Of a stretch of DNA of 10,679 bases, positions 7,080-10,679 are shown piece by piece. Both the position numbers and the translations under genes were made by a program. How positions within the stretch are numbered: position 1 is the stretch's first letter; each line of letters opens with the position of its first letter. A model generated the notes under the pieces. That model was not told the DNA's origin. It saw only the letters and a program-made list of their open reading frames with translations, and did no database searches. This DNA comes from a virus (taxonomy: Duplodnaviria; Heunggongvirae; Uroviricota; Caudoviricetes), in IMG/VR virus record IMGVR_UViG_2711768034_000007, positions 1-10,679 of that record, one strand, 5' to 3'.

Positions 7080-7463
7080 TCACCTTGCTGTCAGTTGTTT
7101 TGATTTCCTGTAGCCTGCCGCGTAAAGAGCTACATTTGGAAGACATACACCAGTTTCTGGTTGCTTATGTCCAAACTCATTCGCGTACACAATGGCCGCT
7201 CGCTCCAGATTGCGTCTGTATTCTTTCTGTTGCCAGATCACGTCCTGTGCCATGAACTTAATTGGCTTAGCGTCTTCTATGCGCTCAGGCGTTTCGTGAG
7301 TACCTTTAGCCTGAATCTGCGCTCTGCTTAGAGTAGGGCGGTGTAATACTTCTGAACTTATTGCTTCTTCGCGGGCCAGTACGCCGTTAGCTAATGCCTT
7401 TGCCTTTAAACGCTCACGACGACGAGAACGTGAATTGCCTTTGAACTGAGTTCTGCGTGTCAT
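7080..7463 (-). CDS. N: Antitermination protein N (P22 gp24 / phage 21 N-like), 127 aa
   Basis: First gene downstream of pL and nutL. Arginine-rich N-terminal motif (SRSRRRERLKAKALANG). C-terminus ...LPNVALYAAGYRKSKQLTAR closely resembles the P22 N-type C-terminus as I recall it. Strong SD (CAGGAGG) 5 nt upstream of ATG. Confidence 0.8.
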   Translation of the reverse strand: MTRRTQFKGNSRSRRRERLKAKALANGVLAREEAISSEVLHRPTLSRAQIQAKGTHETPERIEDAKPIKFMAQDVIWQQKEYRRNLERAAIVYANEFGHKQPETGVCLPNVALYAAGYRKSKQLTAR

Positions 7464-7628
7464 ATAGACCTCCTGATGAACTTTGGTGGTGTGGTAGGTG
7501 GGAGACCCATTTCGACCTGTTTCGGCCTACTTCAATTCGGCAATAGTCCCGCAGGCCTCGCCGCTTTACGTGCGACATATTCCCGTCCATGAACCATTCA
7601 CCACACCCCAAAGTTCACTTTGGTTATT

Positions 7629-7643
7629 GCGCTTTGTCAGCGC
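7629..7643 (-). promoter_or_regulatory. nutL boxB hairpin (P22-type)
   Basis: Minus-strand RNA reads GCGCUGACAAAGCGC (5-bp stem, 5-nt loop), about 60 nt downstream of the pL start; I recall this as the P22-type boxB sequence. No convincing boxA (CGCUCUUA-like) found upstream. Confidence 0.55.
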
Positions 7644-7704
7644 CGTAGATTCATATTCGAATCGTTGTATATTCACCGCCCTGGTGAGTAGTGCGTCCTG
7701 CTGA

Positions 7705-7740
7705 TGTGTTTAGTATCACCGCCAGTGGTATTTATGTCAA
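7705..7740 (-). promoter_or_regulatory. pL promoter (leftward early promoter)
   Basis: On the minus strand: -35 TTGACA (plus-strand 7735..7740), 17-bp spacer containing OL1, -10 GATACT (7712..7717), inferred start near 7705. Nearly identical to lambda pL as I recall it. Confidence 0.85.
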
Positions 7741-7774
7741 CACCGCCAGAGATAATTTATCACCGCAGATGGTT
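7714..7774. promoter_or_regulatory. OL operators: OL1 7714..7730, OL2 7738..7754, OL3 7758..7774
   Basis: Three 17-bp CI-binding half-palindromes read directly from the sequence: TATCACCGCCAGTGGTA, CAACACCGCCAGAGATA, TATCACCGCAGATGGTT, matching lambda OL1 to OL3 as I recall them. Confidence 0.9.
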
Positions 7775-7930
7775 ATCTGTATGTTTTTTATATAGATTTA
7801 TTTTTTTGCAGGGGTGTGTGGCTTGGGAGGTGATCGAGAGATCTGAATTGCGATGTTTAGTGAGTTGTATCTATTAATTTTCAAATAAATACAATTGGTT
7901 ATGTGTTTTGGGGCGAACGTGAGGCAAAGA

Positions 7931-7956
7931 AAACCCGGCGCGGTGGCCGGGTTTAT
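7931..7956. terminator. Hairpin terminator closing the cI-distal cassette (terminates leftward cI-operon transcription before OL/pL; potentially bidirectional)
   Basis: AAACCCGGC-GCGGTG-GCCGGGTTT: 6-bp GC stem extendable by A/T pairs, flanked by A-run on one side and T-run (TTTATTTATT) on the other. Immediately 3' of the stop (7957..7959) of the 216-aa gene. Confidence 0.6.
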
Positions 7957-8607
7957 TTATTGCTTAGGAGCTTGTTGTGATGACGATTGGTTAGTTGGAG
8001 CGCTCGTTAATGGTTGCTGTGTCGGTACCTGTATTATAATTGGAGCCGGGCTGGTTACTGATGGTGACTTGTCATTGCCGGAGATAATCCAACTTGAGGC
8101 TAACATCACGCCAGACAGAATCACAGTAACTAAAGTCAAGCCAACGGCCATCGCCCACTGAGTCGTTGTAAGTCCCGTTTTCAAACCGCCGATTTCACCT
8201 TTAATTTCAGCAATACCTCTCTCAATAGAAGAAAATTGCTGAGTATAATAGGTTTTAAAGTCAGCTGATTCGCGACGCATTTCCGCAGCAATAGACTCTA
8301 CCTCTGATTTGTTTTGTGAAAGCTTTGCGTCAAGTTCTTCTCTGGACATTCCGCTCACGCTTACCTCCAGGGTATCACTCTTCATCGCTACATCTTCCTT
8401 ACTTGGGCGCAAACCCGTTTCGTCCATGGCGTATGAAACTCTATTTGATACCTTAGCATCAATACCAATACTTTGGTACTGAGATGGATCCCCATAAGGA
8501 GAAACGGTTGTCGCTGCTAGGGTTGCACTAACTATAATACTTGGAAGAACTGATGATGTTGTTCCTGAGGTAGGTTGAACTGAAGAAACTGGCTTCAGTC
8601 TTTCCAT
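7957..8607 (-). CDS. Membrane-anchored protein (216 aa): S/T-rich N-terminus, predicted helical/coiled-coil middle, one C-terminal transmembrane helix, short S/P/Q-rich tail. Function unknown; occupies the rexAB slot
   Basis: Track ORF. Hydrophobic stretch WAMAVGLTLVTVILSGVMLASSWII near the C-terminus. ATG overlaps the stop of the upstream 88-aa gene by 13 nt (translational coupling). Terminator follows immediately. AT-rich. Confidence 0.55.
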   Translation of the reverse strand: MERLKPVSSVQPTSGTTSSVLPSIIVSATLAATTVSPYGDPSQYQSIGIDAKVSNRVSYAMDETGLRPSKEDVAMKSDTLEVSVSGMSREELDAKLSQNKSEVESIAAEMRRESADFKTYYTQQFSSIERGIAEIKGEIGGLKTGLTTTQWAMAVGLTLVTVILSGVMLASSWIISGNDKSPSVTSPAPIIIQVPTQQPLTSAPTNQSSSQQAPKQ

Positions 8608-8861
8608 AGCCCATTATCCCTGAGAGCTACCTGTAATGATTTTACTAATGCAACAGCTTGATCCGGGCTCATTGAGACTGACATGTTAGGGGTCAACTCA
8701 ACTTTTACTTGGAAGCTATTATTTCCTTGCTCATCAGACTGCATGTGATGCTCAAATTCATGGCGGTAAAAAGTAATGATTGTTTCAGCACGATCAGGCG
8801 TAATAAGAACTGATGTGGCGGTCATGTGCTGAGGTATGATTTTAATAGTGTTATCTGACAT
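8595..8861 (-). CDS. Hypothetical soluble protein (88 aa from ATG at 8861; track ORF extends to 9002), first gene of a coupled pair in the rexAB slot
   Basis: Start MSDNTIKIIPQHM... preferred: AAGGA SD about 5 nt upstream. Overlaps the downstream 216-aa gene. AT-rich. No family recognised. Confidence 0.5.
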   Translation of the reverse strand: MSDNTIKIIPQHMTATSVLITPDRAETIITFYRHEFEHHMQSDEQGNNSFQVKVELTPNMSVSMSPDQAVALVKSLQVALRDNGLWKD

Positions 8862-9053
8862 AAGTATCCTTTTTGTTTCCTTAGTATTTTTTTGCATTGA
8901 CATCAGAAATAGCGAATCCACAAGAGTATGAGTAAAGCTAATCAGTTTAGTGATACGGTGACTATTAAAGTGGTAAACCACATCAAAGCTCGCAGAGTGC
9001 ATACCAGGCTGTCACACATGACAAAGTAACGAGGATGCCTGATCTCATAGCGC

Positions 9054-9209: not shown

Positions 9210-9286
9210 GTTGACCTCAACTTATTTCGATTCTCCATCACCCTTAATCCGCCGCCCCATGTGTTTGTTGTGATCCGTTGCTGGCC

Positions 9287-10000
9287 TTAACCAAACGTCT
9301 CTTCAGGCCACTGGCTGGCGATAACTTTCCCCACAACGGAACAACTCTCATTGCATGGGATCATTGGGTACTGTGGGTTTAGTGGTTGTAAAAACACCTG
9401 ACCGCTATCCCTGATCAGTTTCTTGAAGGTAAACTCATCACCCCCAAGTCTGGCTATGCAGAAATCACCTGGCTCAACAGCCTGCTCAGGGTCAACCAGA
9501 ATTAACATCCCGTCAGGAAAACTAGGTTTGGATCCTGTTGGCGCGGTCATGGAATTACCTTCAACCTCAAGCCAGAATGCAGAATCACTGGCTTTTTTGG
9601 TTGTGCTTACCCATCTCTCCGCATCACCTTTGGTAAAGGTTCTAAGCTCAGGCGAGAACATCCCGGCCTGAACATGAGAAAAAACAGGGTACTCATACTC
9701 ACTTCTAAGTGACGGCTGCATACTAACCGCTTCATACATCTCGTAGATTTCTCTGGCGATTGAAGGGCTAAATTCTTCAACGCTAACGTTGAGAATTTTT
9801 GCAAGCAATGCGGCGTTATAAGCATTTAATGCATTGATGCCATTAAATAAAGCACCAACGCCTGACTGTCCCATCCCCATCTTGTCTGCGACAGATTCCT
9901 GGGATAAGCCAAGTTCATTTTTCTTTTTTTCATAAATAGCTTTAAGGCGACGTGCGTCCTCAAGCTGCTCTTGTGTTAATGGTTTCTTTTTTGCGCTCAT
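9287..10000 (-). CDS. cI: Lambda-type CI repressor (237 aa; N-terminal HTH DNA-binding domain, C-terminal LexA/S24-like autocleavage domain)
   Basis: Translation is near-identical to phage lambda CI as I recall it, including the [13 protein letters not shown] and the C-terminal domain ending ...[11 protein letters not shown] sits about 10 bp from OR3, consistent with a leaderless pRM transcript as in lambda. Confidence 0.97.
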
Positions 10001-10010
10001 ACGTTAAATC

Positions 10011-10083
10011 TATCACCGCAAGGGATAAATATCTAACACCGTGCGTGTTGACTATTTTACCTCTAGCGGTGATAATGGTTGCA
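10011..10083. promoter_or_regulatory. OR operators with divergent promoters pRM (leftward) and pR (rightward): OR3 10011..10027, OR2 10034..10050, OR1 10058..10074; pR -35 TTGACT 10048..10053, -10 GATAAT 10071..10076
   Basis: Sequence shows TATCACCGCAAGGGATA, TAACACCGTGCGTGTTG, TACCTCTAGCGGTGATA. The first two match lambda OR3/OR2 as I recall them; OR1 differs at one central position from my recollection (TACCTCTGGCGGTGATA). pR hexamers are 17 bp apart. Confidence 0.9.
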
Positions 10084-10100
10084 TGTACTAAGGAGGTTGT

Positions 10101-10301
10101 ATGGAACAACGCATAACCCTGAAAGATTATGCAATGCGCTTTGGGCAAACCAAGACAGCTAAAGATCTCGGTGTATATCAAAGCGCGATCAACAAGGCCA
10201 TTCATGCAGGCCGAAATATTTTTTTAACTATAAACGCTGATGGAAGCGTTTATGCGGAAGAGGTAAAGCCCTTTCCAAGTAACAAAAAAACAACTGCATA
10301 A
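10101..10301 (+). CDS. cro: Cro repressor (66 aa)
   Basis: [66 protein letters not shown], near-identical to lambda Cro as I recall it. AGGAGG SD 5 nt upstream of ATG; downstream of pR. Confidence 0.95.
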
Positions 10302-10340
10302 GTAACACCGCTATTTTCACAATGGACATTCGTCCTACGT

Positions 10341-10353
10341 CGCTGACAAAGCG
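10341..10353 (+). promoter_or_regulatory. nutR boxB-like hairpin
   Basis: CGCUGACAAAGCG on the rightward transcript between cro and cII, same loop as the nutL boxB. Both nut sites are preceded by CUACG. Confidence 0.45.
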
Positions 10354-10439
10354 AGTCCCAATATATCTGACCAACTAAGGTCATATGCGTTTCCACGCAT
10401 ACCTTTCAACTAACTATTCACTATTGGAAATATTAAGAA

Positions 10440-10679
10440 ATGGAACAAACAAGTTACAGCAAACTATCACAGCGCGACGTTGATCGCGCAGAAACAGATT
10501 TACTCATCAACCTGTCAACGCTTACCCAGCGCGGTCTGGCAAAGATGATTGGCTGTCATGAATCGAAGATAAGCAGAACGGACTGGAGATTTATTGCTTC
10601 GGTCTTGTGTGCTTTTGGAATGGCATCAGACATCAGTCCGATTAGCAGGGCTTTTAAGTATGCATTGGATGAAATCACA
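10440..10679 (+). CDS. cII: CII-family transcriptional activator, 5'-partial at window end (at least 80 aa shown); not lambda CII
   Basis: Hand translation MEQTSYSKLSQRDVDRAETDLLINLSTLTQRGLAKMIGCHESKISRTDWRFIASVLCAFGMASDISPISRAFKYALDEIT... Position and an HTH-like segment (TQRGLAKMIGCHESKISR) parallel lambda CII, but the sequence is clearly divergent. No stop in window. SD weak. Confidence 0.55.
   Translation, partial: MEQTSYSKLSQRDVDRAETDLLINLSTLTQRGLAKMIGCHESKISRTDWRFIASVLCAFGMASDISPISRAFKYALDEIT

Follow-up and report, generated by a model that had tools for sequence, protein, structure and literature searches.

The closest described counterpart of the region considered here lies at positions 25377-29630 of phage HK97 (AF069529 / NC_002167; Juhala et al. 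2000), and the gene order gp45, N, gp48, gp49, cI, cro and cII is common to both. Two further lambda-immunity phages, mEp234 and HK106 (EF120460, EF120461; Degnan et al. 2007), have GenBank records in which boxA, boxB, the operators, Timm, pRE and "boundary sequences" are annotated, and phage H-19B (AF034975; Neely and Friedman 1998, 2000; R. Sen laboratory) has supplied the N protein and a nutR site, exactly the one present here, that are widely used in antitermination biochemistry (PMC3526286, PMC4499122). Here we compare with these systems positions 7080 to 10679 of a 10,679-nucleotide stretch of viral DNA (the window; IMG/VR record IMGVR_UViG_2711768034_000007). With a probability of roughly 93%, we regard it as an early control region belonging to a lambdoid phage or prophage of the HK97 kind, in which a lambda-immunity cassette is flanked on both sides by sequence of the H-19B/HK97/Stx-phage type. 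The arrangement is not new, having been sequenced, annotated in GenBank and treated in the literature (Juhala 2000; Degnan 2007; Neely and Friedman 1998/2000).

A megablast search of 7080-10679 against phage genomes returned HK97 as the top match, with 100% coverage and 99.3% identity, and direct comparison extended the matching block to 6421-10679 (4.26 kb, 99.2% identity, 36 scattered differences), with zero base differences across 7951-10312, a segment spanning the cargo genes next to cI, cI itself, OR and cro. The phages mEp234 and HK106 match at 99% over N-nutL-OL and over cI-OR-cro-nutR-cII, on both sides of a middle part that is different. All four regulators are assigned by Pfam, as N_peptide (N), HTH_3 plus Peptidase_S24 (cI), Cro and Phage_CII (Table 1), and a scan of 6400-10679 with Rfam at an E-value of up to 1 found no nut families, the sole match being a spurious long noncoding RNA.

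Homology to lambda (J02459) is confined to 7673-7953 and 9291-10315. Within it pL, pR and Timm are conserved, five of the six operators are identical to those of lambda, and cI and Cro agree with their lambda counterparts at 235/237 (differences T3A and K71N) and 65/66 residues (K39N), respectively; cI is furthermore identical to that of HK97. As had been predicted, then, cI, cro, OL1-3 and OR1-3 are essentially those of lambda, and the lambda-like cI, its N-terminal DNA-binding domain included, the three 17-bp operators at each of OL and OR, which overlap pL, pR and pRM, and the lambda-type Cro define the immunity type. HK97 is homoimmune with lambda. The only operator change, in OR1, is a G to A at window position 10065, position 8 relative to lambda (TACCTCTAGCGGTGATA), and the T3A change of cI lies in its N-terminal arm.

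Outside the cassette the likeness to lambda ends. Lambda's own N, its GAAGA and GAAAA boxB loops, its consensus boxA 8 nt from boxB, its cII and its rexAB are all replaced in the window. The original prediction had considered that N, the nut sites and cII might all turn out close to lambda; N is 31% and cII 28% identical to the lambda proteins, and the boxB loops differ. N belongs instead to the H-19B/HK97 type, with 99% identity to HK97 N and 98% to H-19B N, and carries the arginine-rich motif 12-RSRRRER-18, which was mapped by mutation in H-19B N, where changes in it abolish function (PMC3526286). A P22-type N with a P22-like C-terminus had been proposed, of which the second half stands: P22 likeness is concentrated in the arginine-rich N-terminus and in the last 20 residues (LPNVALYAAGYRKSKQLTAR), 17/20 of which match P22 gp24. 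Over the full length, however, the identity to gp24 is 40% and the similarity is limited to these two parts (gp24 has 100 residues, the window N 127), which makes gp24 a distant relative that uses the same boxB rather than the type to which this N belongs. The last 22 residues (window 7106-7168, residues 106-127; LPNVALYAAGYRKSKQLTAR and its neighbours) are also 90-95% conserved in otherwise unrelated N proteins, such as those of HK620 and several Stx phages, which suggests that the C-terminus is an exchangeable module, and this module may be the part that binds RNA polymerase.

The nut sites agree with this assignment. Both nutL and nutR are base-identical to those of H-19B, down to the spacer hairpins, the UACG linker and the degenerate boxA, and a boxB hairpin early in each of the pL and pR transcripts, together with the N family match, identifies an N/nut system, whose subtype follows from an N at least 98% identical to those of H-19B and HK97 and from nut sites composed of a spacer hairpin, UACG and a GACAA boxB. 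The nutL boxB is the same 15-mer as that of P22 nutL, the RNA present in the structure of the P22 N-peptide/boxB complex (PDB 1A4T; PMC11480772), and the nutR boxB shares with it the loop and the four upper stem pairs, while its closing pair is swapped in a compensatory manner. The string formed by CTACG, any base and CGCTGACAAAGCG occurs exactly twice in the window, at 7648-7630 on the minus strand and 10335-10353 on the plus strand, against 0 expected from 200 shuffles, and both copies fold; the matching boxB hairpins in a common CUACG context that had been noticed at the two sites are thus real. Preceding each boxB is a spacer hairpin. The stem of the nutL hairpin is retained with other loops in mEp234, BIS08P22 and Oslo and is replaced by GUCGA/UCGAC in VT2-Sakai, with UACG always next to it. 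In every N relative examined we observed a UACG linker and a spacer hairpin before boxB, with a stem that is conserved or compensatorily replaced (GAUUC/GAAUC, GGAC/GUCC, GUCGA/UCGAC) and a loop that varies, an arrangement that P22 and lambda lack. The invariant UACG linker is possibly a functional element of the nut sites of this N family, perhaps one that NusA contacts.

The boxA elements are less clear. A search of the window for the consensus YGCTCTTTA with up to two mismatches gave 71 occurrences against 62 expected, which is not above chance, and only the nutR candidate CGCTATTTT is plausibly placed. No consensus boxA (CGCUCUUUA) lies a few nucleotides 5' of either boxB; the candidates are degenerate, and that of nutL (CGCACTACT) is missed by the consensus search and known by position from the annotation of EF120460. 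Hence the earlier statement that boxA is not obvious describes the consensus search well, although the window does have degenerate boxA-like sequences, which bear annotations in related phages. At nutR the window has the boxA sequence of H-19B, and HK97 and mEp234 have CGCUCUUUU; position 10313 is A, as in H-19B, against C in HK97, and the A makes this boxA less consensus-like. The long, hairpin-bearing spacers between boxA and boxB (43 and 22 nt) are the nut architecture of H-19B. For H-19B N, boxA, NusB and S10 are reportedly dispensable.

The right flank continues into cII, of which the window holds the first 80 codons. Its identities (96% to H-19B, 93% to HK97, 28% to lambda and 27% to P22 C1) indicate, at the level of sequence, that it is not the orthologue of lambda cII, and a non-lambda member of the CII family had indeed been predicted. 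A cluster of differences at 10431-10479, around the start of cII, follows H-19B and not HK97. Since both this start and position 10313 are H-19B-like, a further small recombination patch is indicated.

Where the two kinds of sequence meet, the joints are sharp, as expected of the mosaic that the original prediction described. Two blocks of the window, 6403-7952 and 10294-10679, are homologous to H-19B, the first of them interrupted by divergence across the operators (about 7707-7835). On the left side the window equals H-19B at 7606-7706 and is almost continuously identical to lambda between 7690 and about 7955; since the first identity ends at 7706 and the second starts at 7690, the left crossover falls within these 17 bp. 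On the right side, lambda identity gives way to uninterrupted H-19B identity shortly before the end of cro. H-19B, which otherwise has its own cI, cro and operators, another cargo and another N leader, rejoins the window across Timm (7836-7952) and in the last 24 nt of cI (9291-9314), which are further conserved boundary sequences. The same joints are found in mEp234 and HK106. Of 5,426 complete E. coli genomes, 111 carry an intact left joint and 118 an intact right joint (about 2%; 99-100% identity).

The immunity cassette comprises pL/OL1-3, Timm, cI, OR1-3/pRM/pR and cro and is placed between a left flank with N, its leader and nutL and a right flank with nutR and cII. It is bounded by short sequences common to heteroimmune lambdoid phages, namely some 17 nt at the start of the pL transcript and the final codons of cro. 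Judging from the alignments, an exchange of the lambda immunity cassette between these conserved boundary sequences would be a simpler history than a movement of N and the nut sites. Because the cassette is exchanged between them, and because replacing one of them alone would be non-functional, the match of N, nutL and nutR is kept.

That the three elements do form a matched set is apparent from relatives. Salmonella phage BIS08P22, with an N about 72-77% identical to that of the window, has the GAAA tetraloop in both boxB hairpins, as does VT2-Sakai, our comparator for the 933W type, with an N of 41-58% identity depending on the start codon; in Oslo (N 87% identical) nutR has GACAA and nutL a 7-nt loop variant. 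A scan of IMG/VR for the nutR spacer gave at least 120 loci, and N and both sites were then recovered in a subset. Among these, 37 loci have GACAA at both nut sites and an NSRSRRRER-type N, and another 37 have GAAA at both and a TAASRRRAR- or SAAGRRRER-type N, so that, in 74/74 loci having one of these loops at both sites, the nutL loop, the nutR loop and the arginine motif of N agree, with no GACAA/GAAA mix. Lambda-type, H-19B-type and a third type of Cro were each found with both loop classes. Such concordance is what the classical module theory predicts, with cassettes swapped between conserved boundaries and N, nutL and nutR co-inherited on the flanks. The original prediction, in which N and its two nut sites moved together as a specificity unit, is therefore right about the match and not about the movement: the three are sited on two separate H-19B-like flanks and are not one physical unit. 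The nutR sites of the two classes (window versus VT2-Sakai) are nearly identical except for the single-base difference in the loop, which is mirrored at nutL and correlates with the arginine motif of N. We also considered a hydrophobic residue of this motif that might co-vary with the extruded C of the GACAA loop, and dropped it, as a multiple alignment has an invariant Leu in that column in N proteins of both types.

Could a P22-derived N gene have been transferred together with both nut sites, as one unit, into an otherwise lambda genome? The identity of the nutL boxB with that of P22 and the resemblance of N to gp24 in the arginine-rich motif and the last 20 residues would fit such a transfer, which we nevertheless hold to be very improbable. 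N is far closer to its H-19B and HK97 counterparts than to gp24, neither the N-nutL nor the nutR-cII segment showed DNA homology to P22, in P22 itself a consensus boxA stands beside boxB and both the CUACG linker and the spacer hairpins are missing, and the flanks outside the immunity cassette are not those of lambda either. Moreover, 2.7 kb separate N/nutL from nutR, with the cassette between them, which precludes a single insert. Even less credit is due to an assembly chimera joining lambda-like and H-19B-like parts, for which the abruptness of the joints is the only support, and which is refuted by the presence of the same joints in independent records, namely the independently sequenced HK97, mEp234 and HK106 and the 111-118 complete E. 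coli genomes.

An unlikely, though not far-fetched, variant is that the two flanks were acquired separately and not by one double crossover, the match of N, nutL and nutR being restored later by selection. The affinities of the flanks do differ slightly, and thus point to additional small exchanges: the left one is 99% HK97-like with an N leader unlike that of H-19B, and at the right one the start of cII is H-19B-like rather than HK97-like. However, immediately next to the joints both flanks equal H-19B (over 7606-7706 and from 10294 to about 10380), no contig was seen that combined a GACAA nut site with a GAAA one, and a single exchange of the cassette between two boundary sequences needs fewer steps. 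We therefore retain the reading of a lambda-immunity cassette between two H-19B/HK97-type flanks, which no evidence contradicts.

Some points do weigh against that reading or narrow it. The window is not HK97 itself, since left of 6421 a Rad52/SSB/3'-5' exonuclease module stands in place of the erf region of HK97, and it is therefore an HK97-like relative; the first 40 nt or so of cII are likewise H-19B-like. The IMG/VR loci behind the concordance are related rather than phylogenetically independent, and all were selected through one nutR spacer sequence. The order and direction of the exchange events are not recoverable from sequence, and the functions would follow from near-identical homologues that have been studied experimentally.

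By these homologues, cI and Cro would act on the six OL/OR operators as the lambda switch and so give lambda immunity, and on induction or derepression the pL and pR transcripts would carry the GACAA boxB hairpins. N would bind boxB through its arginine-rich motif and, with NusA, make RNA polymerase resistant to terminators, after which cII would activate pRE. NusA-dependent read-through of terminators has been shown for the 98%-identical N of H-19B with the identical nutR (PMC3526286, PMC4499122). The region is thus a textbook example of lambdoid modular evolution, and its mosaic, being real but ordinary and already published, has little weight as a discovery. For annotation, the comparison assigns every regulatory site its position and identifies the window as an HK97-like lambdoid phage or prophage with lambda immunity. 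The remaining biological interest is in the cargo genes, gp48, gp49 and a 51-residue open reading frame (ORF), which lie in a hotspot of defence genes, and possibly in the role of the UACG linker.

Table 1. Regulatory sites, genes and recombination joints of the control region (window coordinates).
Feature	Position	Strand	Basis and remarks
N antitermination protein, H-19B/HK97 type	7080-7463	minus	127 residues; Pfam N_peptide PF25694, 58.5 bits (cut-off 27.9)
N leader RNA	7464-7628	minus	long-range stem of about 20 bp; fold of 7455-7650 (minus), -72.2 kcal/mol, z = -3.97
nutL boxB	7629-7643	minus	GCGCUGACAAAGCGC; 5-bp stem, GACAA loop; fold; nutL boxB in EF120460 annotation
nutL spacer hairpin	7644-7663	minus	GAUUC-GAAUAU-GAAUC, then UACG linker (CUACG = 7648-7644); fold
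nutL boxA, putative, degenerate	7687-7695	minus	CGCACUACU; 43 nt upstream of boxB; annotated as "putative" in EF120460
Left joint	7690-7706		17 bp common to lambda, H-19B and window; start of pL transcript; core CATCAGCAGGACGC also in P22
pL with OL1-3	7712-7774	minus	TTGACA/GATACT; promoter scan; hexamers as in lambda
OL1	7714-7730		identical to lambda
OL2	7738-7754		identical to lambda
OL3	7758-7774		identical to lambda
Timm terminator hairpin	7931-7954	minus	terminator scan; conserved with lambda and H-19B; annotated in EF120460; left edge of cargo cassette
HK97 gp48 homologue	7957-8607	minus	216 residues; phrog_5820 (function unknown category)
HK97 gp49 homologue	8595-8897	minus	about 88-100 residues; HK97-annotated start 8861; ORF extends to 9002
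51-residue ORF	9054-9209	minus	two predicted transmembrane helices; GAGG ribosome-binding site 5 nt upstream; between cI and gp49; unannotated in HK97
cI repressor, lambda immunity type	9287-10000	minus	HTH_3 and Peptidase_S24
OR3	10011-10027		identical to lambda
OR2	10034-10050		identical to lambda
pR	10048-10076		TTGACT/GATAAT; promoter scan; hexamers as in lambda
OR1	10058-10074		one G to A change against lambda, common to HK97
Cro, lambda type	10101-10301	plus	Pfam Cro PF09048, 3e-35
Right joint	10294		7 nt before cro stop; lambda identity ends, uninterrupted H-19B identity starts
nutR boxA, putative, degenerate	10309-10317	plus	CGCUAUUUU; 22 nt upstream of boxB; annotated as "putative" in EF120460
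nutR spacer hairpin	10324-10339	plus	GGAC-AUUC-GUCC, then UACG linker (CUACG = 10335-10339); fold; conserved in at least 120 IMG/VR contigs
nutR boxB	10340-10354	plus	UCGCUGACAAAGCGA; 5-bp stem, GACAA loop; fold; between cro and cII
cII, H-19B/HK97 type	10440-10679	plus	first 80 codons, gene cut by window end; Pfam Phage_CII PF05269, 4.9e-27

The segment replaced relative to lambda is exactly 7954-9290, beginning directly behind the stop codon of cI and ending at the Timm hairpin, and rexA/rexB homology was not found between cI and Timm, as 7954-9290 has neither DNA homology to lambda nor a matching Pfam or PADLOC family. The interval between cI and N is described, in two papers that cite Degnan 2007, as a mosaic hotspot where accessory genes, rexAB and bstA among them, are located (PMC7067206, PMC8585504), and the cassette found here occupies the slot used by RexAB, BstA and HicAB. 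Phage HK225 has its segment 7923-9311, with 99.8% identity, behind a phi80-like repressor, the cassette is present in 53 E. coli genomes, and in mEp234 and HK106 the same slot between cI and Timm holds hicA/hicB plus one ORF in place of gp48/gp49. The proposal that the replacement of rexAB is cargo inserted into the lambda immunity block is therefore correct, because the cassette recurs behind other repressors and hicAB fills its place in sister phages. By its distribution the cassette is self-contained and exchangeable, in line with an already established principle, and its genes are presumably co-transcribed with cI from pRM, ending at Timm.

Pfam and PADLOC gave no significant family for the cargo proteins, and PHROGs placed them in families of "unknown function" only. 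In the gp48 homologue a variable and disordered N-terminus is followed by a conserved coiled coil, a single transmembrane helix and a PIIIQVP tail; in an AlphaFold2 model built from an alignment of eight sequences, a helix (89-138) and the transmembrane helix (146-174) are the only confident parts (mean pLDDT 50, pTM 0.22). Its homologues fall into 11 clusters, all "hypothetical". Only five clusters of homologues were found for gp49, for which phrog_26809 covers residues 36-135 of a 135-residue ORF. In Yersinia and Kosakonia prophages, distant gp48 homologues immediately follow other S24 repressors, and each homologue has a small ORF before it; these small ORFs are only 19-26% identical to gp49, and position and size suggest a conserved gp49/gp48 gene pair. 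The 51-residue ORF, which in Pfam has only a weak similarity to the transmembrane part of PspC, may be the third gene of the cassette. It is conceivable, if rather doubtful, that the three genes constitute an uncharacterised prophage system of superinfection exclusion or abortive infection.

The leader of N is identical to that of HK97 and unlike that of H-19B, the alignment to which breaks at 7497-7605. Its long-range stem can bring the sequence just 3' of boxB beside the ribosome-binding region of N, and recalls the N leader of lambda that is processed by RNase III. In the corresponding leader of BIS08P22 there is a sequence resembling a tRNA T-arm, GATGGTTCGACTCCATC, some 70-40 nt before N starts.

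The block shared with HK97 ends, on the left, at a terminator at 6421, where the HK97 record also annotates one, and left of it the window departs from HK97. This left arm (1-6420) is an early-left module unlike that of HK97. It encodes a 66-residue AlpA/Xis-like protein without a Pfam match, a dATP/dGTP pyrophosphohydrolase plus DUF551, an Ead/Ea22-like protein, the anti-RecBCD protein Abc2, an Rv2179c-like 3'-5' exonuclease, SSB and a Rad52/Rad22 annealase. It also encodes a highly charged coiled-coil protein of 354 residues, rich in E, A, K and R, that is labelled "TolA" in NCBI genome annotations.

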